DNA of 64,000 nucleotides, taken from contig JBBILD010000014.1 of assembly GCA_037445065.1 (NCBI GenBank), positions 1 to 64,000 on the forward strand, given 5' to 3'. Positions 2,990 to 60,442 of the stretch are shown piece after piece. A model generated the notes under the pieces. The model was not told the DNA's origin, ran no database searches, and saw nothing but the letters and a program-made list of their open reading frames with translations. The stretch is from Myxococcales bacterium. Lineage in GTDB: Bacteria; Desulfobacterota; Binatia; HRBIN30. Position numbers and translations under genes: made by a program. Numbering within the stretch: the first letter of the stretch is position 1; each line of letters begins with the position of its first letter.

Positions 2990-3049
2990 GGAGCGATCCT
3001 TCGCAACTTGTGCTCTGTAGCGCGCTGTTCGCCCAAACTGCAATGGCAC

Positions 3050-4162: not shown

Positions 4163-5002
4163 ATGATCGCACGGGTTTTGACGATTGCGGGCTCGGACTC
4201 GAGTGGGGGTGCCGGTGTGCAAGCGGATCTCAAAACCTTCACCGTGCTCCGCGTTTACGGGATGACTGCGATCACGGCGCTCACAGCGCAGAACACCCAG
4301 GGAGTGTTTGCCGTGGAGGTCATGCCCGCTCGCTTCGTCGAAGCACAAATTGATGCGGTGGTTGGGGACGTCGGAGTGGACGCGGTCAAAACCGGTATGT
4401 TAGCAACGGCGGAGATTGTCGCGGCCGTGGCGGAACGGGTTCGAGCGCATCGGCTTGGGCCACTGGTGGTGGATCCGGTGATGCGCGCGCAGAGTGGTGC
4501 TGACCTCCTGGCTCCCGAAGCACGGGAGGCGCTGCGGCGTGAACTATTGCCGCTGGCCACTCTCGTGACCCCGAATCTGGCGGAAGCGGAGGCGCTTGCG
4601 GGTTTTCCGGTGGAGTCGCGAGAGGAAATGGAGCGGGCGGCGAAGGAAATCGTTGCCTACGGAGCGAAAGCTTGTTTGATCAAGGGTGGGCACGCGAGGG
4701 GTTCGCTCGCGGAAGATGTGCTGTTCGATGGTGTCCAAGTGCGCGTCTTTGCCGCCCCCCGCTTGGCCACCCGGCACACGCATGGCACCGGCTGCCAACT
4801 CTCGGCGGCGATCACGGCCGCGCTTGCCAGAGGCATGAGTTTGGAAGACGCGGTGAGCTTCGGCAAGACGTTTATTACGGAAGCGATCGCTTGTGGGCTG
4901 GGCCTGGGCAAAGGAGCCGGTCCGGCGAATCCGCTCGCGTGGTTGGAGGCGGAGCAGTTGCAGAGCTCGGCAATGCGGAAGCCTCAGCCGCCCTCCAGAT
5001 GA
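4163..5002 (+). CDS. thiD: Hydroxymethylpyrimidine/phosphomethylpyrimidine kinase
   Basis: [34 protein letters not shown] and THGTGC motifs; ATG 4163 follows AAGGA. Confidence 0.95.
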
Positions 5003-6807
5003 ACGGAGATCTGCTCGGCAGCCACGGGACGAACGTACGCTAGGCGACGAGCCGCGGGAAGACGCGATAGGTGAAAGCCGCATACGGCGAGTGAAAAACC
5101 GCTGGCCACGATTCCCAACACGGCCAAAACGCCGGGGTCGGTCTCGATGCTTTGCACCTGTGTGAACGCTCCGGCCAAAACCGCTCCAGCGGCGAGTACG
5201 GCGAAGGCGGCGTTGCGCCAGGCACTCCGCAGCGCGAAGGTGACATCCCCCGCCAGGTACTTGCGCAACTCGCGGTGCGAAAAGTGGTCGAGAAACCATT
5301 GGGTTTCCTCGTCGATTGGCCGAGCTTGTGGAGGCAAAAGCACACGCCCAGTGAGTGGATCGGCCGCTGCTTGCCCCTGCCGGTGCAACTCGATCGCTTG
5401 CAGGATCGCACGGTGCTTTTGTTCGTCAATCGGAAAGCGAAGAGCGATGAAAAACGCTAGCAAGGCAAAAGCCGCTGGGGCGAGCGCAAAGATTGCTTGG
5501 ATCGCAAACACGACCTGCGGGGTTTGCGGCTGGTTCGGCACGTAGCCGATCGAACCTAAGATCGCGATCGGGACCGCGGCGCTCGGAATGGCGACGAATT
5601 TGGGCAGCATGCTCCAGAAAGCCGAGTACTGTGCCTCGCGCCGCTTTCCGGTGTGCAACTCATCGTAGTCAATGACATCGGCTTGCATCGCCGGCCCGAG
5701 AAAGAGGCCAGCTCCGAAGCCCGAGCCTGCCCAGGCAATCCAAGCGATCGCCGGCCACAGATCTCCCGGCCCGAGAAAAAACAGAGCCGCGCCGCCGGTG
5801 ATGCCCATGAAGAAGCTAGCGAGCCAAGCATTGCGCTTGCCGAAGCGGCGAGCTGCGGCGACCCAGGCCGGCAAGCAGAGAAACGCTGCGGCAAAATAGA
5901 CCCCGAGAAACACCGAAAGCCAAAGCGCCTCGTTCGGTGGCTGCAGCACGTACGCATTGAAGTAGGGCATGAGCGTGCCAGGGATTGCCCCAGTAATGCT
6001 GGAGACCACATAGGTGAGCAACAGGATGCGGAATGGCCGATTGCGCAACGCGCGCCGTACGCCTGGGGCAAACGGATTTGCAGAGCGAGCGACAAAGTCT
6101 GGACGCTCGCGGACGCGCCAGACTAGCGCGGCGCAGGTTACGATCAGGAGCAACGAGAATGTCCAGCCGATGGAGGAAAATGCGGCCCGCTCGCCGAGTC
6201 CGAAGCGGCTCATGAGAATCCCCGGCGCGATCGAGGCGAAGATTGTACCTAAGATACTGAAGCCTTCGCGCACCCCGAACAAGCGGGATCGCTCGTGGTA
6301 GTCGAGAGTCAACTCCGCGCCGAGAGCCCAGTAGGGCAAAGCGTAAGCGGTGTGGAAGAGGGAGTAGAGGATGAACATGATCCCAAACCACCATGCTCCC
6401 AGCTCTGCGGAGGCGTGAAGTGGCGGATGAAAGAGAAGCCAAAACGCGAGGGCGCAGAGCGGTGACCAAAACAAAATGTACGGACGCCGCCTCCCGAAAC
6501 GAGTGCGGCGGTCAGAAAGCCATCCGAACAGAGGATCGCCGAGGGCATCGATCGCACGTGCAACGGCGATCGCGATAGCAAGGTAGCCAAGCGGTACCAG
6601 CACGACATCCGAGTAGAATTTGGGCATGTGTACCAGGATGGGTACCAGCATCGCCGCCCCCGCGAAGCTCGGCGCGCCGTACACAAGAAGGGTGCTGAGG
6701 GATAAACTCGCATCGCGGGCCGTACTCCGGTCGCTGGGCGCTTGCCGGTGCAGTGCCCCTTCTTGCCACTTCTCGGTGGGAATTGCCTCCGCGCTCTCTC
6801 CCCTCAT
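4984..6807 (-). CDS. MFS transporter, GPH/MelB-like family, with a C-terminal extension
   Basis: DALGDPLFGWLSDRRTRFGRRRPY, ALGAELTLDYHERSRL and MQADVIDYDELHTGKRREAQY; about 12 hydrophobic segments plus two extra near the C-terminus. Confidence 0.88.
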   Translation of the reverse strand: MRGESAEAIPTEKWQEGALHRQAPSDRSTARDASLSLSTLLVYGAPSFAGAAMLVPILVHMPKFYSDVVLVPLGYLAIAIAVARAIDALGDPLFGWLSDRRTRFGRRRPYILFWSPLCALAFWLLFHPPLHASAELGAWWFGIMFILYSLFHTAYALPYWALGAELTLDYHERSRLFGVREGFSILGTIFASIAPGILMSRFGLGERAAFSSIGWTFSLLLIVTCAALVWRVRERPDFVARSANPFAPGVRRALRNRPFRILLLTYVVSSITGAIPGTLMPYFNAYVLQPPNEALWLSVFLGVYFAAAFLCLPAWVAAARRFGKRNAWLASFFMGITGGAALFFLGPGDLWPAIAWIAWAGSGFGAGLFLGPAMQADVIDYDELHTGKRREAQYSAFWSMLPKFVAIPSAAVPIAILGSIGYVPNQPQTPQVVFAIQAIFALAPAAFALLAFFIALRFPIDEQKHRAILQAIELHRQGQAAADPLTGRVLLPPQARPIDEETQWFLDHFSHRELRKYLAGDVTFALRSAWRNAAFAVLAAGAVLAGAFTQVQSIETDPGVLAVLGIVASGFSLAVCGFHLSRLPAARRLAYVRPVAAEQISVHLEGG

Positions 6808-8534: not shown

Positions 8535-9806
8535 TCACCTCCAGACCGGGTCGTTTGCAGGTAGGCTTCGGTCAGCGTCTTGCCGGCCAACCGACCGCTC
8601 GTGCGAAAGCAAGGCGTGAAATGCGCGGTGCGGGCTCGGCGCAGTCACCATGGCACAAGGCGGCGCCCCGGCGCAAGGAACGACGGTGTAGAACTTGATG
8701 AGCAGAGCGTCTCTGCGAACGCTCAGGACCGCGAAGCCATTTTGCGCCGCAGCAAAGAGCATGTCGTGCCGCCATTGTACTGGCGAACAGTAAGCGCCAC
8801 TCCCAGATACGAGCTGAAGAGGGGTCCCCGCGTCGTGTGCAGATAAGAGCTGCAAGTTGTGGTCATGCCCAGACAACACCAGGGGCACTGGGGCGCCGCT
8901 TTCCCAGATCGCCTCAAGCACTCTCTGCCGGTAGCGGCGGTAGCGGAACGCGTACGCGTCTTGATTCAGGTCAGCGAACGGCGGCAGGTTGAGGGCAGCG
9001 AGGAAGTGGGCCGGAAAGAGGAAAAAGCTTGCCGGGCGGCGCAGGCCTTGCGGCCACGCGCCGTCATGGGGACCCGCGGTGAGCAACGGGTGGTGCGCCG
9101 CCACCAGTTGCCAAGCGTAACGGTGCTTGCCACCCGCCAAGAGCGTCCGCAGTGTGGCGGCGGACGCTCGCAAAAACTCGTCCTCGAAAATCATTCTGTG
9201 AGAATCGAGGGTGACGACCTGAACCAGTTCTTCGAGTAGAATCTCGCGCGGCGGGCCCGCATAAAATTGCCATTGGGCGCCCCAACGGCGCGAGGGAGCG
9301 AGGAACTGGTCGATGTCCCGCTGGTTGGCCAAGCCTTCCGCCCCGCAGCCGTGGTCGTGATTGCCAGCGATTGCATGAACTTTGATTCCACGCTCGCGTA
9401 GCCAGTCGTAAGGCCCCAGCACCTCTTCGATCTGGCGTTCGATCTCCGCTCTACTTTCGGCGGAGTTTGACTCCCCGCAGGTCCCCGTACGGCCCACCAG
9501 GCCGCGTGGGTAGAAGTTGTCGCCTAAGAGCAAGACATCAGTCGGAATCGACTCTCCTTGCAGGAAGTACTGCTCGAGCGCACGGGATACAGCCTGGTTT
9601 CTTCCCTCGTGCGAGGTTCCAGGGTCTCCGACCAGTACGAGCCGGCGATCCCAGGGCTGCGCCGTTGGGGCCGCAGCATTGGGAAAAGCTCCCTCCTGTT
9701 CCGCACAGCTCCGCACAATCGGAAGTCCGGCCAGCGTGCACCCCATTTGCAGACCGAGGAGAACCGTTGCGAGAAGCGCCGCCAAGCAACGAGCGGTCAT
9801 GGCCAT
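8535..9806 (-). CDS. Calcineurin-like metallophosphoesterase, probable lipoprotein
   Basis: VGDPG, LGDNFY, AGNHDH, AHHP and SGHDHN metal motifs; signal MAMTARCLAALLATVLLGLQMGC. The ORF-track extension to 10361 is antisense to the SDR gene. Confidence 0.85.
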   Translation of the reverse strand: MAMTARCLAALLATVLLGLQMGCTLAGLPIVRSCAEQEGAFPNAAAPTAQPWDRRLVLVGDPGTSHEGRNQAVSRALEQYFLQGESIPTDVLLLGDNFYPRGLVGRTGTCGESNSAESRAEIERQIEEVLGPYDWLRERGIKVHAIAGNHDHGCGAEGLANQRDIDQFLAPSRRWGAQWQFYAGPPREILLEELVQVVTLDSHRMIFEDEFLRASAATLRTLLAGGKHRYAWQLVAAHHPLLTAGPHDGAWPQGLRRPASFFLFPAHFLAALNLPPFADLNQDAYAFRYRRYRQRVLEAIWESGAPVPLVLSGHDHNLQLLSAHDAGTPLQLVSGSGAYCSPVQWRHDMLFAAAQNGFAVLSVRRDALLIKFYTVVPCAGAPPCAMVTAPSPHRAFHALLSHERSVGRQDADRSLPANDPVWR

Positions 9807-9885
9807 GGGGAGCGAGACTAGGCTGAGCACCATGCCGTTGCCACTGGTTGCGGAGCGAAAGGTGTGCGCTCTATCGTGCAAGGCC

Positions 9886-10650
9886 ATGAATCGAGCAGAG
9901 CCTGCGGTGGCATTGGTCACGGGTGGGGCCGGCGGGATCGGACGGGCGATTGCTTCCCGATTGAGCGAGGCAGGGTTCGCGGTTGCTGTATTGGACCGCG
10001 CTGCCGAGGGAGCCGCGAGCGTGGCGGCGGCGTTGCGCGCCCAGGGGCGGCCGGCCTTGGCCTGTGTGGCGGACCTCACCGACCGGCCATCGTTGGACGA
10101 GGCGTTAGCCGACATCCATGCACACCTCGGCCCGGTGCGGGTTTTGGTGAGCAACGCGGGCTGGGACTGCGTCCAGCCGTTTATCGAAAACACGGCCGAG
10201 CTCTGGGAGCAACTGATTGCCATCAATTTGAAAGGGGCCATCGCGATCACCCGTTTGGTGCTGGACGACCTGATGGCAGCGCACCAGGGGCGCCTCATTT
10301 TTGTCAGTTCTGATGCGGCGCGGGTGGGCAGCAGCGGCGAGGCGGTGTACGCTGCGTGCAAGGCGGGGTTGATCGGCTTCGCAAAGACGCTGGCCCGGGA
10401 GATGGCTCCATACTCGATTACCGCGAATGTGGTTTGCCCGGGTCCGACGGAGACCCCTCTGCTCGATCAAGTCAGGCAGGGAGAGGCCGGGGCAAAGATC
10501 ATTGCCGCGATGCAACGCGCCATTCCCCTGCGCCGCTTGGGTCGCCCGCAGGACGTGGCGAGTGCGGTTGCATTTTTCGCTTCCCCGGAGGCGGAGTACA
10601 TTACCGGCCAGGTGCTGAGTGTGAGCGGCGGCCTCACGATGGTTGGTTAG
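9886..10650 (+). CDS. SDR-family oxidoreductase (BadH/FabG-like)
   Basis: TGGAGGIG, SNAGWD, SSDAARVGSSGEAVYAACKAG (YxxxK) and CPGPTETP. Confidence 0.9.
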   Translation: MNRAEPAVALVTGGAGGIGRAIASRLSEAGFAVAVLDRAAEGAASVAAALRAQGRPALACVADLTDRPSLDEALADIHAHLGPVRVLVSNAGWDCVQPFIENTAELWEQLIAINLKGAIAITRLVLDDLMAAHQGRLIFVSSDAARVGSSGEAVYAACKAGLIGFAKTLAREMAPYSITANVVCPGPTETPLLDQVRQGEAGAKIIAAMQRAIPLRRLGRPQDVASAVAFFASPEAEYITGQVLSVSGGLTMVG

Positions 10651-11996: not shown

Positions 11997-12079
11997 GCCC
12001 CAGTGGTGGAATGGCAGACACGGCAGACTCAAAATCTGCTCCGGGTCACCGGGTGGGGGTTCAAGTCCCTCCTGGGGCA
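11997..12079 (+). tRNA. tRNA-Leu(CAA)
   Basis: Acceptor stem GCCCCAG/CTGGGGC plus discriminator A, anticodon arm GCAGA-CTCAAAA-TCTGC (CAA at 12030-12032), long variable arm, T-arm GGGGG-TTCAAGT-CCCTC; CCA not encoded. Confidence 0.96.
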
Positions 12080-51345: not shown

Positions 51346-52107
51346 CTACGCTAGGCCGTAGCCGCCGTCTACGTGCAGACAAGTGCCGGTGATGTAGCTG
51401 CTCGCGTCGGAGGCGAGGAAAATGGCGGCCCCCTCCAGCTCGGTGAGTTCCCCCAGGCGTTGCATGGGTAGCTCGCGGATAAAACGTTGGCCCCGCTCGG
51501 TAGAGAAAAATTCGCGGTTCATGTCGGTAAGGAAGTAGCCGGGGCAAATGGCGTTGACCTGCACGTTGAAGCGGACCCATTCGAGGGCCAGGACACGCGT
51601 GAATTGCACCAAAGCCGCCTTGCTCGCGCTGTATAGGGACATATACCGGGCCGGACGGGTGGCAAGAACAGAGGCTACATTGAGGACCTTGCCCTTGCGG
51701 CGCTCGATCATGTGCGGCCCAAGGTGCTTGCAGCACAGCATCGGGCCGAGGACATTGACGCTCATCACTTGCTGCCACTCTTGCGGATTGAGTTCCAGGA
51801 GCGGTCGGCTTGTTCCGACTCCAGCGTTGTTGACCAGGATGTCCACGTGTCCCATAGCCGCGAGCGTCTCCTGGACCAAACGGCGAACCTCGTCCTCGCG
51901 AGTGACGTCTGCGGTAATCGCGGCAGCGCGGCGGCCCAGGGCTTGGATTCCTTGCGCCACGGCGTTCAACTCACTGGAGGAACGGCTGCAGACGGCGACA
52001 TCTGCTCCCGCGCGTGCCAGCGCAAGGGCGATGGTTTTGCCGATCCCGCGGCTTGCACCGGTGACCAAGGCGACTCGCCCGCTCAAGTCGAAGCAGTTCA
52101 TGGTCAT
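51346..52107 (-). CDS. SDR-family oxidoreductase
   Basis: TGASRGIG, NNAG, YSASK, CPGYF and VDGG. Confidence 0.92.
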   Translation of the reverse strand: MTMNCFDLSGRVALVTGASRGIGKTIALALARAGADVAVCSRSSSELNAVAQGIQALGRRAAAITADVTREDEVRRLVQETLAAMGHVDILVNNAGVGTSRPLLELNPQEWQQVMSVNVLGPMLCCKHLGPHMIERRKGKVLNVASVLATRPARYMSLYSASKAALVQFTRVLALEWVRFNVQVNAICPGYFLTDMNREFFSTERGQRFIRELPMQRLGELTELEGAAIFLASDASSYITGTCLHVDGGYGLA

Positions 52108-52202
52108 ACAGGGCCGCTCTATACGGGCGAGCCACCCCGCCCGCAACCACGCACTTCGCTAGGACTTCGTTTCACCACGTTTCGCCAGCAGCGCGTTTCG
52201 CC

Positions 52203-52342
52203 AGGACACCCATCGCATGAAAGTACTTTGAAAGGACACCCATCGCTTTGCTCTCTTTGAAAGGACACCCATCGCAAGCACTAGGCCCGCTCCATGTGGG
52301 GAGACCCATCGCAAGGGAGGCCCATGTGAGGACACCCATCGA
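52203..52342 (+). repeat. Left tandem cluster of AGGACACCCATCG(C), 5 copies
   Basis: Copies at 52203, 52233, 52262, 52299 (variant GGGAGACCCATCGC) and 52329; start-to-start spacing 30, 29, 37, 30 nt. Confidence 0.92.
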
Positions 52343-53156
52343 AAGGGGAAGTCTTAGGGAGTACAACCAGCACTAGCAGCTTCAGAAACGACTACTTAGT
52401 TGTCCGGGACGCCCCAAAGGGAGAGCTCGCCGCATCCATCCATGCCGGGAGGGGGCAGTTCAATTGGGCCCAGTCCAACCTACTGGGCGCCGGGACGGAG
52501 TTTAGGAACACCCCGTGAAAATCTTGCGGGAGGTGTCGTGCCTCGAGATGCAGCAAGACCAGTAGAGCGCACTCAGTTCACGCTGCACAAGCCGATACGT
52601 GCTCGCTCATTGGGCGTGCGCCAAGCGGCGACGTCATGGGCACCCGACGGGTCGATCCGCGTCTGCCCGCTTGGTGCCTGTTGGCGACGTGCGATGTATC
52701 GCCGGACACGATGGCGCGCGAGATGTGCGGGAAATTGCGTGCAGACAGATTTTCAGGTTTTGTGTGCGATTGAGCCCGCCCCTGTCAGCAATAGTGACAC
52801 GGGCGTCTCGCACCTGCGGGGATCCGGTTTTCGCAGGCCGCACGAGGCAGGGTTTCGCGGCTGAACCCAGCTAAAGAGTGCCGCCTTTGCCCGGGCTTCC
52901 TTATGAAACGGGCTAGTCTGACGGAAGCGCGGCGTGGGAGGAGTTCGTACGGAGGACGTTGAGGGCGCTGGGGATGGCAACCGTCTTGATCCGCCGGCGG
53001 GTTCGAGCGCGAAGTGCGGCGTTGCGAGGTGGGTCCGTCGGGCTCCGCGCAGCCAATATTTTTGCTAGTTTTTTTATTTGGTCGGCCTTGCCAGCCAGGT
53101 CGAACCTCTGCAACCGAGCCGCTTCTAGCGCACCACGTGCCGCTCTGGAGTCCGGC

Positions 53157-53396
53157 TCACTCCTGGCCTTCTTCGCCTCCGTTGACCGCTGCGTGCATCT
53201 GGAACATGAATTCCCGCAGCGTGTAGAGTGCGCGGGAAGGCCACTCGCCTCCCTCCAGGAGTGCCGCCAGCGACATCAGCATAGCAACGCGGATCAAGGG
53301 CTCGGCACGGTCGTCTTGCCAGACATCGAACGGCAAGGTTGTCAACACATCTACCTGGAAGAAATGGTCCCTGTCGCGAATGCACATGCGTTGCAT
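53157..53396 (-). CDS. Small hypothetical protein (79 aa)
   Basis: Strong RBS GAAGGGAGGAGGGCG directly before ATG; MQRMCIRDRDHFFQVDVLTTLPFDVWQDDRAEPLIRVAMLMSLAALLEGG...; no family recognised. Confidence 0.55.
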   Translation of the reverse strand: MQRMCIRDRDHFFQVDVLTTLPFDVWQDDRAEPLIRVAMLMSLAALLEGGEWPSRALYTLREFMFQMHAAVNGGEEGQE

Positions 53397-53748
53397 CGCC
53401 CTCCTCCCTTCAAGGAAGAATGCCCGCGGACTCATCAACTTTGATGCCACCACCTAGTTGGCAGCCTGCTCGTGGCCTCCCCCTGCGGTTCTACCCAGGG
53501 ACAGCTCTTATTGAGCGCTGCTCTGACTCACAGTGAATCAAGGCGTGGCCGCGAGTCGTGCTGACTTTGTGGCTTCTGTTTGTACGCGTAACGCCCGCCT
53601 TATGGCCGGGGCAACTGCGGATGGCGAAACCCACTCAACCAATCGCACGCGAGTCGCTTGGGTCCCCGCACCGCCAGTGATCGAGCCCGGGGCGGCTTGT
53701 TTCATGCTGAGACCCAATAGTGTTGCTCACAAGACCTGCGGAGGTAGC

Positions 53749-53757
53749 TGGGTGTCC
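53749..53757 (-). repeat. Single inverted copy of the island motif (TGGGTGTCC)
   Basis: Exact reverse complement of GGACACCCA. Confidence 0.55.
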
Positions 53758-54322
53758 GCGAACGAGTCTCCAACGCCCCTACGTCGTGTCTCCGCAAGCT
53801 TCAGCTCGTGGCGGAGTGCCGAGCGGGTAAACTGGTCGCCACCGCTGGCAGCACGTGCAGCTACTCAACTTGATCTGCGCAGCAGCCCGTGCACTGCTGC
53901 TGCGACTTGGGGCATTCTGCGTCTGGGCGGTCCGTTCAGAGCATTCGCAGAACGCAATTTCGGTCCGAGGGTGCCCAGCGTGGGCCCGGGGGCGACGCTG
54001 GGGCAATCACTGCCCTTTGTCGGGCTGGAACCGGCAAGGTGTCGCGTCAGCCGAAACAATCAGAGCTGGGGTGGGAGTGGTGCATCGAGCACGAGCGCTG
54101 TCTAAAAGGTCCGCTCGAAGCCTAACGCGACACCATGGGCTTCGCCGTGCAAGCGGCAGTGCCAGGAACGCGCGTTCGGGATGACGACTGGGCAGGGGAC
54201 AAGGTTCACGACGCCGCTAGCGGGGCGGATTAGCGTCAGAGCATCAGGTGGTACCCCCCGTTTGTCCGCTACCACGTTCCGATTCTCGTGGTTCCCCCGA
54301 TCGTTTACCGCCCGGTGTTACC

Positions 54323-54390
54323 AGCATCTTACGAGGACACCCATGATCTCAAAAGGTCATCTGAGAAGCATCCGAGAAGGACACCCATCG
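54323..54390 (+). repeat. Middle pair AGCATC-N5-AGGACACCCAT
   Basis: Motif copies at 54334 and 54378, 44 nt apart, each preceded by AGCATC. Confidence 0.85.
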
Positions 54391-54954
54391 GGAGGAGATG
54401 CTTTTGAACCCCCCTGCAGGCCCTCCTTCCTCCCACAGTCCGCCCGCGGCATAATAAAAAGCTGGGCGTCTCAACCAGGGATACGCATTGGGAGCGGCAC
54501 TTTCTTAAAAGGACAACCACCGCGGGGGGCGCCTTTAAAGTCCTCGCTGGTTCCCACTTCCTGCACCCGTGCGGCTTCGCCATAATGGCAAGCTAGGCAC
54601 TCGTGGGAACTGAAGGGGCTCGGCCCTCTTGCAAGCCGCTGGCTCCGCTTTCGGCCCCTGCCGCCCGGCCTTCCTTCACCCCTCCTTTTCTTCCCTGAAC
54701 GCTGGAACAGCGTACCGACATGGGCTCTCTTCAGCTCCACGGTGACAAATGGCGCGGCAGGGCAGGTTTCCCCCCGTCTTTGGAACGCGAGACCGGTAAC
54801 CATAGTCAAAGGACATCGTTGGCCGGCGGGAGAAGGCCACGACGAGCAAAGGTTTCGATCGAGGCCCTGTTGCCTCAGTGTTTGCTGCCTCGGCTGGGAT
54901 CATTAGGGCTTTCGCGGGGGCATCCCTTGTACAGGGATTAGGGATTCGCACCGA

Positions 54955-55797
54955 CTACGGGAGGGGAGGTGACCCTAGGATGGGGGCTCGTTGTCGCCAG
55001 ATCCAAACACTTCGAGATCGCGCGACGATTCGTCCGTCCTTTCCAAGAACGCACTGAATCAGGCCCTTGGCACCAGCGTTACCGTCCGCAAGAGACTCAG
55101 CGGGGTCCGGCCAGGTGAGAATCTCCAAAGTTTCCCCCACGCTTGCCTCGGAGACGTATTCGATGTCCAACACCTGAGGCCGAAGAGCTCGACCTTGTTC
55201 CAGCATTTTCCTCACGCTCCAACCGTATCTGTCCTCGAACCACTGGAGGGCCGCGTCTTCCAGAAAGTTCGCGTATTCGGCGTTGTTCACGTGACCGACA
55301 TGGTCGAGGTGGCTTGGAAGGACATCTCGTTCCATCCGGTGGGGATCGCCGTCGCCGTGGGTAGGTGGCGACGGAATCCGCGCAAAGCAGGCAGGCTCAG
55401 CGTTCCCTGCAAGCGCATGTGCCAGATCGGACGGTATGCGGGCTGGGCGCCACGAGGATAGGTCGCAATACACCCAGTCTGTGACCCCCTCCGCGACGAG
55501 CAATCCCCGCGACTCGACACGGTACTCTCGTAGGGAACGAGCACGGCGAACATCAGCAACGCGTGTGGTCACTTGTAGTTCAGTTGTTCCGCCGGCAGGG
55601 CGGAAGCGAGCAACTAAGGTGCGGCGTACGAGCCATACTTTTCCTTCGTGGGCGTAGCGCTCGGCATCGTAACCCGCTGCAGCCGAGGCCTCCACGGCGG
55701 CCCTTTCGAGCATTCCCAAGAAAGCGGACAGTTTCTGCTCTCCGACGAAGTCAACTTCTGCATGCGAAACGTGATGGGTCAACTGGTATGTGAACAT
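54955..55797 (-). CDS. Acyl-ACP/acyl-CoA thioesterase (double hotdog)
   Basis: VSHAEVDFVG in the first half and SHLDHVGHVNNAEYANFLE in the second. Confidence 0.88.
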   Translation of the reverse strand: MFTYQLTHHVSHAEVDFVGEQKLSAFLGMLERAAVEASAAAGYDAERYAHEGKVWLVRRTLVARFRPAGGTTELQVTTRVADVRRARSLREYRVESRGLLVAEGVTDWVYCDLSSWRPARIPSDLAHALAGNAEPACFARIPSPPTHGDGDPHRMERDVLPSHLDHVGHVNNAEYANFLEDAALQWFEDRYGWSVRKMLEQGRALRPQVLDIEYVSEASVGETLEILTWPDPAESLADGNAGAKGLIQCVLGKDGRIVARSRSVWIWRQRAPILGSPPLP

Positions 55798-56117
55798 CGT
55801 GCTTGCCGTTCGTGCATTTTGCCCAAATGTTCGCGGCCGACTCTCTTAGCAGGAGGGGTGGACATATCGACGGGTGCTTCTTTTTGGTTTGGGAGAGAGG
55901 GCGGGTGCGATGGCTTTTGGTTGACGGGTCCCCTGGGGTGGAGCAACGTTCTTTCTGCACGACCCAGAGGCGCAACGCCGTGATTAAACGGACCCGCATC
56001 AGTGCCGTCGGCTTCACATTTGCAAGAGGGAAGTGGGCCTACGAGGGAGCGTGGCCCGCGGGCCGGCAGTGCGACTGGGAACTCTCACCGGTCGCTCCGA
56101 TTTTCACGGGGATTTTT

Positions 56118-56164
56118 TGGGTGGCCTGTCTGGTCTCCTGTCTGGTCCTGGTCCCGTCAGGTCC
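56118..56164 (+). repeat. Inverted motif variant TGGGTGGCCT followed by stuttered CTGTCTGGTC units
   Basis: TGGGTGG-CCTGTCTGGTCT-CCTGTCTGGTC-CTGGTC-CCGTCAGGTCC. Confidence 0.6.
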
Positions 56165-56585
56165 GTTTGTTGCGTGCCCCATCTTTGCGCCGACATCACG
56201 AACCATCACCTTCGATGAAGATGAAACGTACAGGTGCCCGATTTTCGCTCGTCCTTCTTTAAGCGAGAGAGAGGCTGAGGGAGCGGCGTCATCTCGTTGC
56301 TGCGCTAGCAGTGTGTCGGAGTATGCGCAGCCAAACCCTCGTACAAGCAGTGATCCCCAGGCAAATCGCTTTCGGGCGAGGAGATTTCCTTGTCATGCGT
56401 TTATACGAACTTAAAAACCCTGGCTAGGTTTTTCTCCGACAGACTCGTAGGATCGTTCTCCAGAAAGTGGAGGCCGCAATCGCGAGAGTCTTCACGTGCG
56501 AGTGTGGGAAGCAATTTTTCACCGCGAGCGCTGATTCGCGGGTCGGCACTCTGTAGGCGCCAAACCGGTTAAGTGTGCGAAGCCG

Positions 56586-57611
56586 TCAGGCGGCGCTTCG
56601 ATAGAGCACACGAGCTGCCTCGCGGCCTCGGATCTTGCGCAACCCACGAGCCCGGCCAATGGCCAGAATTGCCTGCTCGTGACCGGCCATCGTCAAGAAC
56701 GATCGGGAAAAGGTCCGTATCGCAGTCAGGAAACCTGCTTCGGTGAGGCCGAACCTCTGTAGAGCCTGGGATGCCCTGCCGGTACACCAGTTGACATCGC
56801 TGACCGGGAATCGCATCGCTTCTGCTGCGCCGTGGAGTAAGGCGATGTAATCGCCTCTTTCGATTGGCAGCCGTGGAAATCCGGTTACGGAAGGGCCTGA
56901 CTCGTCTGCGAATGGCATCAGCCATCCTGTGTGAGACGCACCCGCAACGTCTGCATCATGGCTGGTTTGCGCACTACCGGCCTTCTCTCTCCCATAATCG
57001 GTCGAACGCAGACGGTGATAGATCGAAGTGAAACGATCGCCTTCTAGTTCCGACGTCACACCAGCCCGAATGGGATTCAAATCCACGTAACTCATGCATG
57101 TGAGAAGAGCGCCCTCATCAACAAGCGCTTGGGCGCGGAAACGACCCTCCCAGAAGCGGGCGGTGCAACCGTCTCCCCGGTTCGCCCGTCGGGCAATCGC
57201 TTCATTGAGGCAGCGCATGAACCAACTTAGGTCGCTGAGGCGGCGCCGCCAGATTTCGATTTGCGCTTCTCGGTCTAGCCCAGTCACCCGCTGGAGTCGC
57301 TTGCGGCTTCTAGGGAATAGTTCGCTCCAGCGATCCAGCACTTCCTCGGCGTCCCATGAAGCGCTCCGCGCTTGGTCGATGAAAACGACCAAGTGAAAGT
57401 GATTGCTCATCACGGCGGAGCCGCAAACCTGGATGGCAAAAATCTCCGATAGAGTTCGGATGCGTTCAGTGAGCCAGCTCTTGCGATGGTCGCAATTTTG
57501 GCCGGTTGCGCGGTCCTTCCCTCAGAGGAAAGCACGTCGCACGCATCGACTGATTACGTGATAGTAGGGAGTCACGCTAGTATCAACAATCAGTTTACGT
57601 GGCATGGTCAT
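56586..57611 (-). pseudogene. REP-associated-type HUH/Y1 tyrosine transposase (RAYT-like, IS200/IS605 superfamily) with an in-frame TGA at codon 30
   Basis: [39 protein letters not shown]...AVMSNHFHLVV (HUH)...RFWEGRF...YVDLNPIRAG (catalytic Tyr). TGA is at 57522-57524; the ORF track reports only the part from 57413. Confidence 0.85.
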
Positions 57612-57617
57612 AGCCTA

Positions 57618-57646
57618 GGAATATACTTATTATTGAATCAGGTCAA
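57618..57646 (-). promoter_or_regulatory. Candidate transposase promoter
   Basis: Minus strand TTGACC-N15-TATATT (or N17-TATTCC), with TATATT 8 nt before ATG 57611, in an AT-rich patch; no obvious RBS. Confidence 0.4.
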
Positions 57647-57791
57647 CGATGTCCGATTGAACCTGCAACAGTGCATGGGTCGGTACGGACCGCGAACCAC
57701 CCCACTTCGGCTGGAGACGGCGCTCCGTGTCCGCATCCAGGGCATTCTTTGCTCCCGAACGGGGCTGAGTTCCTCCCTGGGCGTTTTTTTT
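57639..57791 (+). ncRNA. Candidate structured small RNA or ssDNA hairpin element divergent from the transposase
   Basis: TGGTCA-N17-TATTAT upstream, four consecutive hairpins and a terminal T8 tract; no credible plus-strand CDS. Confidence 0.35.
57737..57791 (+). terminator. Intrinsic terminator-like hairpin plus T8
   Basis: CCAGGG (57737-57742)/CCCTGG (57775-57780) with inner stem GCTCCC-GAAC-GGGGC, then GCG and TTTTTTTT (57784-57791). Confidence 0.4.
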
Positions 57792-57885
57792 AGATGGGAG
57801 GTCGCTCGTGGTTCGTAAGCGCAGAGGACAACTGCGAACACTGGTTCGCAACCCAGCCTCGCTTCAGGCCTGGGACGCGTACCGG

Positions 57886-58872
57886 CTACTCGGGCCGGTT
57901 CGCAGTTTGCGCCAGTTCGCCGATCTCATCAGGCTGCAGCACACGGTTCAAGATGCGAATATCAGCCATCTCGGCCGCTGCTGGGACACCTGAGGGAAGT
58001 TTGGAGCCAATGTAAACTTTCGGCTCCTCCCCAAAATTAGGGGCAAATTCGTGGGCTGCTTGCGAAACAAGCTTCCCGTTCACGTACAAGCGAAGCTGGC
58101 CTTGGGACCATACGCCGGTGACTTGGTGCCACTCACCCGGCTTCCAGTCGTCCAATGGCGCGCCTGCCCCTCGTTCGATTCCTTGGTCGTCGATAAACTC
58201 GAAGCGTAGAAAATTCACGTTTTTCGTGACACGGACGCCCCGCTCTCCTAACTGAACAAAGACGGCGTCGTTTTGGTCATCTGCTTGCCAGTCCGGCTTG
58301 ACCCAAAGTGCGACCGTACCGGCCTCACCGCTAATCCTACCCACGTCGGTTAGTTCTACCTGAGTCTCAGTGAAAAACCTCCGGTCTTTACCTCCCTCGA
58401 ATACGACCTCGGGCGGTACCTCGCCCTGGGCCGAGATCTCACTGCTCACCTCCAGGGCTTGACGCTGAACATTGGGATCCGGTTTGAGCTGTGCAACTTT
58501 CTGATCCTTTGCTTCGCTTGGGGATCCAACCTCGAACTCGCTTTCTTCTCCAAGGTGTCCGCCGACACCCTCCCGCACCCTTGGCCGGAGCGCCTCACCC
58601 GTGGATCGAACCTCTGCACCCATGCCCCTCACACTTGCGGCGCTTCCTTCCGCGCTGCTCTCTCCGGGACGAGGACCACTTGGGTGCCGGTCCCTAGGTT
58701 GAGCCAAGAGCGGCCCTTTCTCCTGGTCCCGCGCTTCCCGACTTGCCCCCTTGGTGTCTGCGCCCAACTGACGCGACTCGTCTTGGGTTGTCGAACCCCC
58801 AAAGAGGCGCAAGAGGCCAATGCCGACGACAATTCCGAGAAGCCCAAGCGCAACGATGACAGCCTTCCGCAT
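57886..58872 (-). CDS. Membrane-anchored LamG-like jellyroll protein
   Basis: N-terminal TM, disordered linker, GTVALWVKPDW, GEWHQVTGVW..GQLRLYVNG and ADIRILNRVL.PDEI. Confidence 0.85.
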   Translation of the reverse strand: MRKAVIVALGLLGIVVGIGLLRLFGGSTTQDESRQLGADTKGASREARDQEKGPLLAQPRDRHPSGPRPGESSAEGSAASVRGMGAEVRSTGEALRPRVREGVGGHLGEESEFEVGSPSEAKDQKVAQLKPDPNVQRQALEVSSEISAQGEVPPEVVFEGGKDRRFFTETQVELTDVGRISGEAGTVALWVKPDWQADDQNDAVFVQLGERGVRVTKNVNFLRFEFIDDQGIERGAGAPLDDWKPGEWHQVTGVWSQGQLRLYVNGKLVSQAAHEFAPNFGEEPKVYIGSKLPSGVPAAAEMADIRILNRVLQPDEIGELAQTANRPE

Positions 58873-58969
58873 ACTTTGGGCATGCTGAACGTCCCTAGCG
58901 ACACTGTCAACACCATCGCTGTGGTGGTTGATCTATTGCGCTTGCGGCCCAGCCTTTCTTTCAGGGGCA

Positions 58970-59017
58970 GACAGCAGGACACCCACGATAAGCAGCCGGA
59001 GAATACCAGGACACCCA
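58970..59017 (+). repeat. Pair of AGGACACCCA copies
   Basis: Copies at 58976 and 59008; 58970-58986 is a perfect 17-bp inverted repeat of 59691-59707. Confidence 0.85.
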
Positions 59018-59633
59018 GTGAGAACGGGGGGAACAACAGCACACACAACGAACGGTGACCAGAAGCAGTGAACAAGGCCGAGTAAGGACTGAACCCCCAT
59101 CTTCCCATGCGAACGACGGTTGAGACCAAGGTGTGGGCGCACAAAAACACGACGAAACCAAGGGTCGGTTAGAGGTGCGCGCGGGGGACAACCGTTTGGC
59201 TGGGAGCAAGCGGTGCTGCGGTCTTCGCCCCTGACATCTCGGCTCGCCTCCTGAACAAATGTGGCGCACCTTGGGCGTGTCGAGACCAGTTGGAACAGGC
59301 GCAAACCCAGTTGCCCGGCAGGCGATGCGCGCGGCCGGACCGGTTCGGTGGCAGGTGCGCAGCGCCTTCGCCGCTGGACGATATGCCAAGCCTGAGCACG
59401 GGACCGGAGCAAAGTGGACCACTCGCACGGCAGAAACAGGAGAACTCCCGAGAGAAGACACGCAGGCCCAACCTCTGCTTGCACCGGCGAGGCCTGCCGG
59501 TCGTGTGCTTGGTTCCGCCCCAGTACTTGAGACTGGGAGCCTAGAGTAACGGGTCAGGCCCTCCGTAAGCATATCCACTGAAGCCGCTGCTCTCCGGTTC
59601 AAGGTTTCCGGTCCTCTCAGGAAAGTCGACGGG

Positions 59634-59830
59634 CAAAGTGGGTGTTCTGCTGTCAGAATCAGAGTGTGCGTCCTTCTATGCAAGCTCAAAGTGGGTGTCC
59701 TGCTGTCATGCCTGTCCGCACCTTTGTCACGTCCTTGTCGTCCTCCCTCAGGGTGCACGGGCCGGGTCGGGAGCTTTGTATCGGTTCCGTCAAAGTGGGT
59801 GTCCTTCTATCGGTTGAAGTGGGTGTCCTT
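59634..59830 (-). repeat. Right cluster of inverted copies (AAGTGGGTGTCCT), 5 copies
   Basis: Cores at 59639 (TGGGTGTTCT), 59665 (TGTGCGTCCT), 59692, 59796 and 59820; four are followed alternately by GCTGTCA or TCTAT. Confidence 0.9.
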
Positions 59831-59956: not shown

Positions 59957-60442
59957 TCAGTCGCGGAAGTTCATGAATTGTAGCGGTAGCCCAAAGTCGC
60001 GCTCGCGCAGCATTTGGATTACCGCCTGCAACTCGTCCTTTTTCTTGCCGCTGACTCGGACCTGGTCGCCTTGAATTTGCGCCTGGACTTTGAGCTTCGT
60101 GTCCTTGATGGCTTTCACGATCTCCTTGGCGCGCTCGGGGTCAATACCCTGTTGCACCCGGATCTGCTGCTTGGCGCGCCCGCCACTGGCGGGCTCAATG
60201 CGCCCGTACGACAACGCCTTGAGTGATACTCCGCGCCGTACCAGCTTGGACTGAAGGATGTCCACGACAGCTTTCACTTTATTTTCCGTATCGGAAATGA
60301 TCGTGATCGCATCCTTGTCATCGAGAATTTCGGTCTGGGTCCCTTTGAAATCAAAGCGCTGAGCCACTTCCTTCCGAGTTTGGTTCAGCGCGTTGTCTAC
60401 TTCTTGCCAGTTGACTTGGGAAACGATGTCAAACGACGGCAT
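59957..60442 (-). CDS. yajQ: YajQ-family nucleotide/c-di-GMP-binding protein
   Basis: MPSFDIVS...RFDFKG...[20 protein letters not shown]...LQFMNFRD. Confidence 0.96.

Follow-up and report, generated by a model that had tools for sequence, protein, structure and literature searches.

The question raised by positions 52203-59829 of the 64-kb window analysed here (the whole stretch of DNA, positions 1 to 64,000 of contig JBBILD010000014.1) was what connects a crowd of short repeated words with a single gene for a Y1 HUH nuclease. In this island of 7.6 kb, copies of the 10-mer AGGACACCCA stand in clusters of alternating orientation on both sides of that gene. An original prediction, made from the letters of the DNA, had taken the words for the ends or target sites of the encoded transposase and the DNA between the clusters for modules that it moves or accretes. 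The comparisons described here suggest that the island is probably a decaying locus of a system resembling the REPtrons and TIRtrons, with a single-strand DNA nuclease of the Y1 HUH type, from TnpA-Y1 subclass 2.3, at its centre.

Exact copies of AGGACACCCA numbered 11 in the window, as had been predicted, and every one lay inside 52203-59829, with none outside the island. They were found on the plus strand at 52203, 52233, 52262, 52329, 54334, 54378, 58976 and 59008 and on the minus strand at 59692, 59796 and 59820, in the strand order that had been described. Dinucleotide-preserving shuffles gave a mean of 0.12 copies and a maximum of 1, and 11 copies were reached in 0 of 100 shuffles. With one mismatch allowed the window held 17 matches versus 3.24 expected; 15 of the 17 were inside the island and the only two outside it, at 4290 and 5300, were at chance level. 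The one-mismatch copies of the island include those at 53749 (minus strand, CGGACACCCA), 54510 (plus), 56118 (minus, AGGCCACCCA) and 59639 (minus), and a degenerate copy with two mismatches was found at 52299. The copy at 53749 is probably genuine because it retains the 9-base core GGACACCCA; in the copy at 56118 this core is broken, and it could be a chance match, with about 0.4 one-mismatch matches expected per 7.6 kb (by arithmetic from the 3.24 per window).

Outside the 10-mer the copies fall into two flank types, AAAGGACACCCATCGC in the left array and CAGCAGGACACCCACTTTG in the right array, the latter together with the pair at 58976 and 59008 reading CAGCAGGACACCCAC(TTTG). The word was described as non-palindromic, and this was upheld: folded as single-stranded DNA, neither the left array (z +1.33) nor the right array (z -0.17) did better than its shuffles, by which a hairpin structure like that of repetitive extragenic palindromic (REP) sequences was ruled out for the window arrays, and no GTAG tag was associated with them. 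A tRNA scan of the window found tRNA-Leu at 11997 only, which leaves the island without a tRNA attachment site.

Arrays of the same word were found in many other genomes. A scan of one genome per species (596 Gb) for two AGGACACCCA copies 10-40 bases apart gave at least 128 loci, representing at least 121 distinct regions, where by our own arithmetic a few tens of chance matches were expected; the counts given for this motif-ascertained set apply among the matches listed. Many of the loci were arrays of 3 to 19 copies, mostly in Gammaproteobacteria, with others in Acidobacteriota, Planctomycetota, Bacteroidota, Myxococcota, Bdellovibrionota, Nitrospirota and Chloroflexota. Between loci the 10-mer alone was conserved, its flanks being nearly without information, and by a crude count 121 of 374 motif copies fell inside long open reading frames (ORFs), though such ORFs cover 80% of the loci.

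When the window protein was searched against these loci by tblastn (with X at its stop), HUH homologues were found in 25 loci from 20 regions, the best alignments being 34-59% identical to the window protein; the 25 include 5 of the 45 loci with flanks of only about 300 bases. When 2,330 ORFs of the longer loci were clustered without bias, the HUH family appeared in 14 locus groups; the second cluster was the antisense shadow of this family, and the next real family, a multi-domain histidine kinase, occurred in 7 groups. The HUH family is the only protein family that recurs beside the arrays. Its members occur in Acidobacteriota, Bacteroidota and Betaproteobacteria as well as in the lineage of the window.

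The words beside HUH genes were found to be oriented. In all 14 regions with an exact copy no more than 300 bases upstream of the HUH start, that copy was forward, two related genomes having one extra reverse copy at -89, and loci that had no exact copy upstream showed near-copies there (TGGACACCCA, GGTCACCCA, AAGGCACCCA and AACACCCA). Reverse copies followed the HUH stop in 9 of the 10 loci inspected downstream. The canonical unit therefore reads forward copies, gene, reverse copies.

This arrangement was recovered in a set chosen by protein similarity alone, made up of the 13 plasmid or chromid records that a central family member retrieved from PLSDB by tblastn. Most of these are large secondary replicons from Pseudoalteromonas, and Shewanella, Aeromonas, Vibrio, Photobacterium, Catenovulum and Saccharobesus are also represented. 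The exact 10-mer AGGACACCCA occurred in 0 of the 13. The gene was nonetheless flanked by a word in fixed polarity, forward upstream and reverse downstream, in 12 of the 13 loci. In 8 records the closest forward ACACCCA stood at -69 to -79, and in 6 reverse TGGGTGT lay at +1167 to +1373, with no copy in the wrong orientation in those upstream and downstream ranges in any of the 13; one record had no recognisable word. In two records, a Vibrio tritonius plasmid (L133) and a replicon of Photobacterium sp. GJ3 (L134), each with its HUH gene at 3001, the variant word GGACAGRC replaces GGACACCC in the same polarity, standing forward upstream in both and, in L134, also in six reverse copies downstream. 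The proteins of these two Vibrionaceae records form a clade of their own (support 100/98), which hints that word and protein co-vary.

The limits of DNA homology between related units coincided with the word. Three Pseudoalteromonas strains (L132, L138 and L139) carry related HUH genes in different annotated neighbourhoods, and in pairwise comparison their homology sets in at the proximal copy, at -77 to -90, and extends as far as the stop codon. In a further pair, 92% identical (L131 and L137), homology covers -77 to +1185, beginning inside the forward copy and ending a little beyond the reverse one, and the flanks are unrelated. Copy number also changes: two Pseudoalteromonas shioyasakiensis strains that share a neighbourhood have 2 (L140) and 4 (L141) upstream copies, and the extra copies seen in L138 (left end) and in L137 and L131 (right end in both) are tandem duplications (40-205 bp) of an end segment with its word. 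In mixed arrays, many of them from a few related genomes, junctions of forward then reverse copies outnumbered those of reverse then forward by 40 to 8, and the preferred start-to-start distance was 21 bases, equal to a 10-bp stem and an 11-base loop. Taken together, polarity, fixed distance and homology boundaries show that the motif marks the ends of the unit, and it is most likely what the enzyme recognises. The predicted role of the words as ends or target sites of this transposase was thereby supported, by the 20 of 121 listed regions, by the fixed polarity in 12 of 13 loci and by the boundaries.

An intact unit would accordingly consist of a gene of about 1 kb between inverted copies of a short word that is not a palindrome and has the core ACACCCA, extended in the lineage of the window to AGGACACCCA. 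A forward copy would stand about 75 bp before the start codon and reverse copies about 100-600 bp past the stop. Further copies would arise by tandem duplication of the end segments, giving polar arrays beside the gene and in intergenic gaps. The enzyme may recognise the word directly, with no hairpin, and may nick and rejoin the DNA at or beside it, and repeated or abortive processing of the ends could then create and spread the arrays. The arrays of the window would have kept the canonical polarity while becoming separated from their HUH gene.

Could the arrays instead have nothing to do with the HUH gene? The AGGA within the motif resembles a ribosome-binding or CsrA-type site, and arrays do stand in many regions where no HUH gene is visible, as would suit a host or RNA-level feature such as a GGA-repeat sponge small RNA, or a product of chance or assembly. 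Such an origin is very improbable, however: Rfam families gave zero matches across 50-62 kb at E up to 1, no other protein family was enriched, chance was excluded for the window, and polarity to the HUH gene, fixed distance and coincident boundaries are properties at the level of DNA. The sponge RNA was dropped as a candidate for want of an Rfam match and on account of these DNA-level properties.

The class of the enzyme was assigned from its signature motifs. The window protein (gene of 341 codons, 56586-57611, minus strand) carries NHFH at residues 70-73, WE at 154-155 and YVDLNP at 175-180, with 104 residues between H71 and Y175; all aligned homologues carry the same HuH, W and Y motifs, several with F in place of Y in the HuH. 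On these motifs the protein appears to match TnpA-Y1 subclass 2.3, for which the article of Quentin 2018 (BMC Genomics 19:475; PMC6006769) gives, in its text, the signature NH[Y/F]H, WE and YVDLNP, a median length of 325 amino acids, extra sequence inserted between the HuH and W motifs, an HuH-to-Y spacing that is long (median 110) and a C-terminal domain peculiar to the subclass. To have called the protein RAYT-like was roughly right, but it scored 39.3 bits (E 5.6e-10) with the NCBIfam RayT model NF047646, below the cut-off of 80, and it matches a separate subclass. The Pfam Y1_Tnp match was at E 0.033 only.

An AlphaFold (AF2) model was built on an intact homologue, 57% identical to the window protein, with 89 aligned sequences, and reached a predicted local distance difference test score (pLDDT) of 91.3. 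Its best fold match in the PDB was 4er8_A, E. coli TnpA-REP bound to a REP hairpin (probability 1.0, TM 0.57 on the target), followed by matches at ranks 2-34 that include the ISDra2, IS608 and IS200 transposases; the Rep domains of adeno-associated virus (AAV) and wheat dwarf virus were weak matches (probability 0.07-0.15). The model has a helical insertion after the HuH and a helical C-terminal domain of about 140 amino acids, both at high confidence. For this C-terminal domain a sequence profile search of the PDB gave chance-level matches only, and an Atlas search gave one unnamed cluster at 0.75 with no functional lead.

The family is large. A database search found at least 6,704 clusters at E up to 1e-10 among 8,000 candidates scored, and in a profile search the numbers of representatives at E limits of 1e-30, 1e-10 and 1e-3 were 2,530, 8,955 and 21,500; the weaker matches probably include other Y1 subclasses. 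Source records label its members 'REP element-mobilizing transposase RayT' or 'transposase', and no homologue was found in phage records. In the tree the window protein groups with a Terriglobales homologue (50% identity; support 100/97). Y1 HUH nucleases related to RAYTs are reported from about a quarter of bacterial species in the passages of Quentin 2018 and Bertels 2017 that give such counts.

The same proximal copy that marks the end of the unit stands just before what looks like a promoter in Pseudoalteromonas (ACACCCA, a short variable gap, then AT-rich TTTGCAC or TTTCAC), at a fixed distance from the gene. A domesticated, sequence-specific DNA-binding factor that breaks no DNA, with the arrays as its operators or structural sites (autoregulation at -75, nucleoid or termination roles), could account for this, and for the large, confidently folded helical C-terminal domain. 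The neighbourhood of Rnf and methionyl-tRNA synthetase (MetRS) genes around the HUH gene, shared by three species known from metagenome-assembled genomes (MAGs), also fits vertical inheritance, as the text of Bertels 2017 has it for RAYTs. We nevertheless regard such a factor as an unlikely explanation of the whole. Across the 89 aligned sequences the histidines of the HUH motif and the tyrosine vary little or not at all, which speaks for catalysis having been kept; related strains have their units in different neighbourhoods, with homology ending at the motif; and the duplications of end segments point to DNA processing. A role of this kind can also coexist with an end-processing enzyme.

Several points weigh against reading the island as a decayed unit of such an enzyme and its word. 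Binding and cleavage of the word are deduced from co-location only. The scanned set is biased towards the exact 10-mer, so that its taxonomic spread and copy numbers are unrepresentative, and the 13 records of the independent set amount to about 6-7 independent lineages. About 100 of the at least 121 array regions have no HUH gene within the stretch of DNA covered. The Actinomycetota matches of the scan (Streptomyces, Corynebacterium and Kineococcus) are probably unrelated coding tandem repeats. The place of the proximal copy just upstream of a conserved promoter-like stretch would suit a purely regulatory role, and the causal order could be the reverse, with the HUH unit inserting into pre-existing convergent arrays of other origin; in either case the word would still be the cognate site of the protein. 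In the window itself the arrangement is non-canonical, with no clear copy at -75, the LamG gene and a reverse pair of copies separating the HUH gene from the upstream array, and the closest downstream copies about 2.2 kb beyond the HUH stop.

The HUH gene of the window shows signs of decay. An in-frame TGA occupies codon 30 (57522-57524), where at least 90% of the 89 aligned homologues have Cys (RRAFLCG). Two invariant residues are altered (E146G and G151A), and there are three further departures from columns at least 94% conserved. The relative P0001, 92% identical, has been called from the same internal Met and is probably also disrupted upstream. Between the two, differences occur in 4 of 60 conserved and 13 of 125 variable columns, which are similar rates, and because they strike conserved about as often as variable columns we read the window gene as evolving under relaxed selection. 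From these changes the gene is most likely a pseudogene with an inactive product, and the island most likely a decaying example of the system. TGA at a Cys position is a pattern that can signal selenocysteine, which was rejected as unlikely: the RNA fold downstream of the TGA was unremarkable (z -1.24), and the changes at invariant residues favour decay.

The layout of the island bears on what, if anything, the words enclose. Past the HUH stop, in the orientation of the gene, come a thioesterase gene, three reverse copies, the forward copy at 53749, an ORF of 79 amino acids and five reverse copies. The last of these form the left array (52203-52342), plus-strand copies that are reverse in gene orientation, with four exact words (52203, 52233, 52262 and 52329) and the degenerate one at 52299 in units of CTTTGAAAGGACACCCATCGC spaced 29-37 bp apart. 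The 79-amino-acid ORF (53157-53396, minus strand), which has a GGAGG ribosome-binding site, lies between this array and the single minus-strand copy at 53749-53758, forward in gene orientation. The 79-amino-acid ORF gave no NCBIfam match, and a longer reading of it (98 amino acids, 53157-53453) had no Pfam match. The three reverse copies are the exact ones at 54334 and 54378 and the one-mismatch copy at 54510, AGGACAACCA (54334-54519, plus strand). The thioesterase gene (54955-55797, minus strand) encodes a double hot-dog acyl thioesterase (4HBT_2 at 6.8e-14, with the N- and C-terminal Acyl-ACP_TE domains), and the doubtful one-mismatch copy follows at 56118-56127, on the minus strand.

On the other side, between the HUH gene and its upstream arrays, lies a gene (57886-58872, minus strand) whose product has a hydrophobic N-terminus and, at its other end, a LamG/ConA-like domain (Laminin_G_3 at 3.6e-22). 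The pair of exact copies at 58976-59017 (plus strand), whose flank GACAGCAGGACACCCAC is common with the right array, is reverse in gene orientation; no other copies on the upstream side of the HUH gene depart from the canonical orientation. The right array (59639-59829, minus strand), forward in gene orientation and 2.0-2.2 kb upstream of the HUH start, has three exact copies (59692, 59796 and 59820), the one-mismatch copy at 59639 and a degenerate one at about 59659-59679. Apart from the 58976/59008 pair, every exact copy has the canonical polarity for its side of the HUH gene, but nothing stands at the canonical distances, the copies lying 1.4-2.2 kb from the gene.

The clusters had been predicted to delimit cassettes that the enzyme moves or accretes, inward-facing pairs of motifs bounding modules moved in trans (about 620 bp of non-coding DNA, the thioesterase gene and the 79-amino-acid ORF) and the island growing by accretion. 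The three brackets do share the polarity of the canonical unit, forward upstream and reverse downstream, and their sizes of 0.85-1.8 kb are near the canonical 1.3-1.5 kb; since unit ends coincide with the motif, any DNA from a forward to a reverse copy could in principle be a substrate. The orientation pattern of three inward brackets was as described, with the reservation that one of them, that of the thioesterase, hangs on the doubtful copy at 56118. We counted 90 intervals of 150-4000 bases between adjacent arrays across the listed loci: those with a HUH gene faced inward in 6 of 9 cases, whereas the 81 without one were inward in 13, outward in 20 and same-direction in 48, with no inward excess. 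Inward brackets therefore go with the HUH gene rather than with genes of other kinds, and elsewhere it is the HUH gene that they enclose; in the window it is the one gene that is not bracketed.

No homologue of the thioesterase, the LamG protein or the 79-amino-acid ORF was found beside arrays in the other loci. In three related gammaproteobacterial genomes the array-dense islands beside the HUH gene have self-contained convergent units between housekeeping genes (MetRS, Rnf subunits, Mrp/ApbC, the dCTP deaminase Dcd, the sirohaem synthase CysG, MsrB and a lytic transglycosylase). Movement of cassettes is on this evidence unlikely, and the claim was not sustained. The alternative that had been offered beside it, that the repeats accumulated between resident genes, fits better with brackets in no inward excess and with arrays between housekeeping genes. 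The thioesterase is probably a resident gene outside the system, and the LamG protein is probably outside it also; for these two, as for the 79-amino-acid ORF, a place among the arrays as a resident or incidental gene is likelier than one as a mobilised cassette. A bolder extension holds that subclass 2.3 enzymes are hairpin-free, that the bare word of 7-10 nucleotides is the whole end signal of small mobile units of a new kind, made up of word, gene and inverted word, that arrays are the scars of 'stutter', that any forward-to-reverse DNA could be moved in trans and that the island is a graveyard of non-autonomous cargo units (the 620 bp, the thioesterase and the 79-amino-acid ORF), with the extreme conservation of the word from phylum to phylum reflecting direct recognition of single-stranded DNA by the conserved core of the enzyme; this is conceivable, though we think it rather doubtful.

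The outermost clusters raise a different possibility, since they are inverted, have about five copies each and each abut a conserved-looking gene: the whole 7.6 kb could be one composite element inserted between the SDR and DUF520 genes, with the outer arrays as multi-site ends like those of Tn7 or Mu. The G+C content dips slightly, to 0.57-0.59 at 56-59 kb, compared with about 0.61 elsewhere. A composite element would however leave the internal arrays unexplained, its outer arrays have the 10-mer in common and not their flanks, and canonical units elsewhere are about 1.3-1.5 kb with a HUH gene only. No DDE or RNase H-like transposase or recombinase domain was found by Pfam among the 14 ORFs tested, for which Tn7/Mu-like ends were dropped as a candidate. 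A family hidden Markov model (HMM) run on the six-frame translation of the window found one HUH gene only, and relics of further HUH genes inside the brackets were rejected with it. An origin as a single composite is quite improbable.

The island was called gene-poor, and so it proved: the plausible genes at 52.2-59.9 kb are those of the thioesterase, the HUH nuclease, the LamG protein and the 79-amino-acid ORF, five other long ORFs having no Pfam match. In the 2.6 kb or so at 52343-54954 the only recognisable gene is the 79-amino-acid ORF, which is unusual for a bacterial genome, and four ORFs of 91-190 amino acids tested there had no Pfam match. An SDR dehydrogenase gene (51346-52146, minus strand) forms the left flank of the island, and genes for DUF520/YajQ, LolA and FtsK lie to its right. 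The closest named relatives of the SDR (51346-52107), DUF520/YajQ (59957-60442) and HUH proteins come from Candidatus Binatia MAGs (43-78% identity), and the nearest database proteins are 94%, 93% and 92% identical, respectively; at the DNA level the HUH gene matches that of locus L010 at 68-72%.

Some arrays of the scan had other settings. Evenly spaced copies were seen in the Actinomycetota matches L005, L052 and L068 (Streptomyces), L045 (Corynebacterium), L125 (Kineococcus) and L017 (Solirubrobacterales), those of L005, L017, L052 and L068 being inside long ORFs. In at least two genomes (loci L035 at 6001-6112 and L066 at 9853-9949) 10-mer arrays stand in frame inside the MetRS gene, in the stretch that links the anticodon-binding domain to the tRNA-binding domain at the C-terminus, where they are translated as ENEDTH- or ENEDTQ-like repeats. 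Arrays with a GGGGATCT prefix occur in L086, which has six exact copies, and in L113, both from a contig labelled as a Klebsiella pneumoniae MAG. In L079 an IS110-family transposase gene (8767-9840) lies between two hairpin-type motif units, within an array-dense island of a gammaproteobacterial MAG.

What the family gains from these data is a DNA partner. For two large Y1 subclasses none was known before, the text of Quentin 2018 (PMC6006769) stating that automatic and manual searches gave no REP-like sequences for subclasses 2.1 and 2.3. Subclass 2.3 now has a concrete and testable one, a short unstructured word at the ends of the unit that forms polar arrays. This makes testable the hairpin-free recognition of DNA by a Y1 enzyme, the origin of REP-like repeat populations, here apparently by duplication of end segments, and the use of such enzymes as reagents for sequence-specific tagging of single-stranded DNA; for annotation, it accounts for tandem repeats between genes that were otherwise a puzzle in many bacteria of the sea and the soil. 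The copy in the window is of lesser weight because it is apparently a decaying example. The open-access full text searched, including work on RAYT/TnpA-REP since 2018 (subscription journals, figures and the supplements of key papers lay outside it), held no link of this word or of any repeat to subclass 2.3. As far as searched, then, the link between subclass 2.3 and the word, the word as the end of a unit, and the tandem polar arrays with their spread across phyla appear to be unpublished. The protein subclass and the concepts of the REPtron and TIRtron are already known from the published texts.

Compared with known systems, the family differs from Tn7 and Mu in that no island ORF has a DDE transposase domain, and from integron cassettes in that its repeats are short direct words and not attC-like palindromes, with no recombinase domain in the 14 ORFs. 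Rep/iteron systems, such as geminivirus and circovirus origins and the Rep-binding element of AAV, likewise join a HUH nuclease to tandem direct repeats at its site of action. Their Rep proteins initiate replication, with helicase domains of their own and a hairpin at the origin, whereas nothing here indicates replication. With IS200/IS605 elements the family shares the Y1 HUH fold and discrete units with defined ends; it differs in having no subterminal hairpins, Y---NP in place of Y---Q, a protein twice as long and no tnpB-like ORF in the island, and in the low identity between copies within a genome that is described in the text of Quentin 2018 (PMC6006769).

TIRtrons, in the passages of Di Nocera 2013 (BMC Genomics 14:522; PMC3733652) that describe them, are closer in that a RAYT-like gene (TIRYT) lies between terminal inverted repeats (TIRs) and not REP hairpins. 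Several TIRs share GGGGWSAS at a similar distance from the gene, and some are dispersed in dimers or clusters. The word here is (AGG)ACACCCA and not GGGGWSAS; its reverse-strand TGGGTGTC fits that consensus at 6 of 8 positions, and GGGGACAC, a sequence that the consensus allows, has GGACAC in common with the motif (a comparison of our own). By the text of Quentin 2018 (PMC6006769), the 26 TIRYT examples divide into 20 from subclass 2.1 and six from subclasses 2.2 and 2.5, with none from 2.3. The passages on TIRtrons and REPtrons in these papers describe neither tandem arrays of end segments nor conservation across phyla.

With subclass 2.3 as set out in the text of Quentin 2018 (PMC6006769), the likeness extends from the motifs to length (341 versus 325), HuH-to-Y distance (104 versus 110), insertion and C-terminal domain. 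The differences are the cognate short motif in polar arrays, where the text of that paper reports no repeats (its supplements might), and a taxonomic range wider than the Chromatiales and Alteromonadales that it gives as the main hosts, taking in Acidobacteriota, Bacteroidota, Betaproteobacteria and the lineage of the window. REPtrons (RAYT/TnpA-REP with REP, BIME or REPIN sequences; 4ER8), in the accounts of Bertels 2017 and Quentin 2018 so far as these go, have a usually low-copy Y1 HUH gene between inverted cognate repeats, as here, and in both systems the DNA between genes holds additional scattered copies, some of them in convergent pairs; 4er8_A was also the best structural match. The repeats here differ in being non-palindromic, unfolded, free of the GTAG tag and arranged in tandem polar arrays. 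Their core is the same from phylum to phylum though the proteins are only 34-59% identical to that of the window, which itself scored 39.3 bits against the RayT cut-off of 80. Two features of a REPtron, inverted copies that flank the gene and further copies dispersed in the genome, are found in this family, and the window keeps their polarity at 1.4-2.2 kb.

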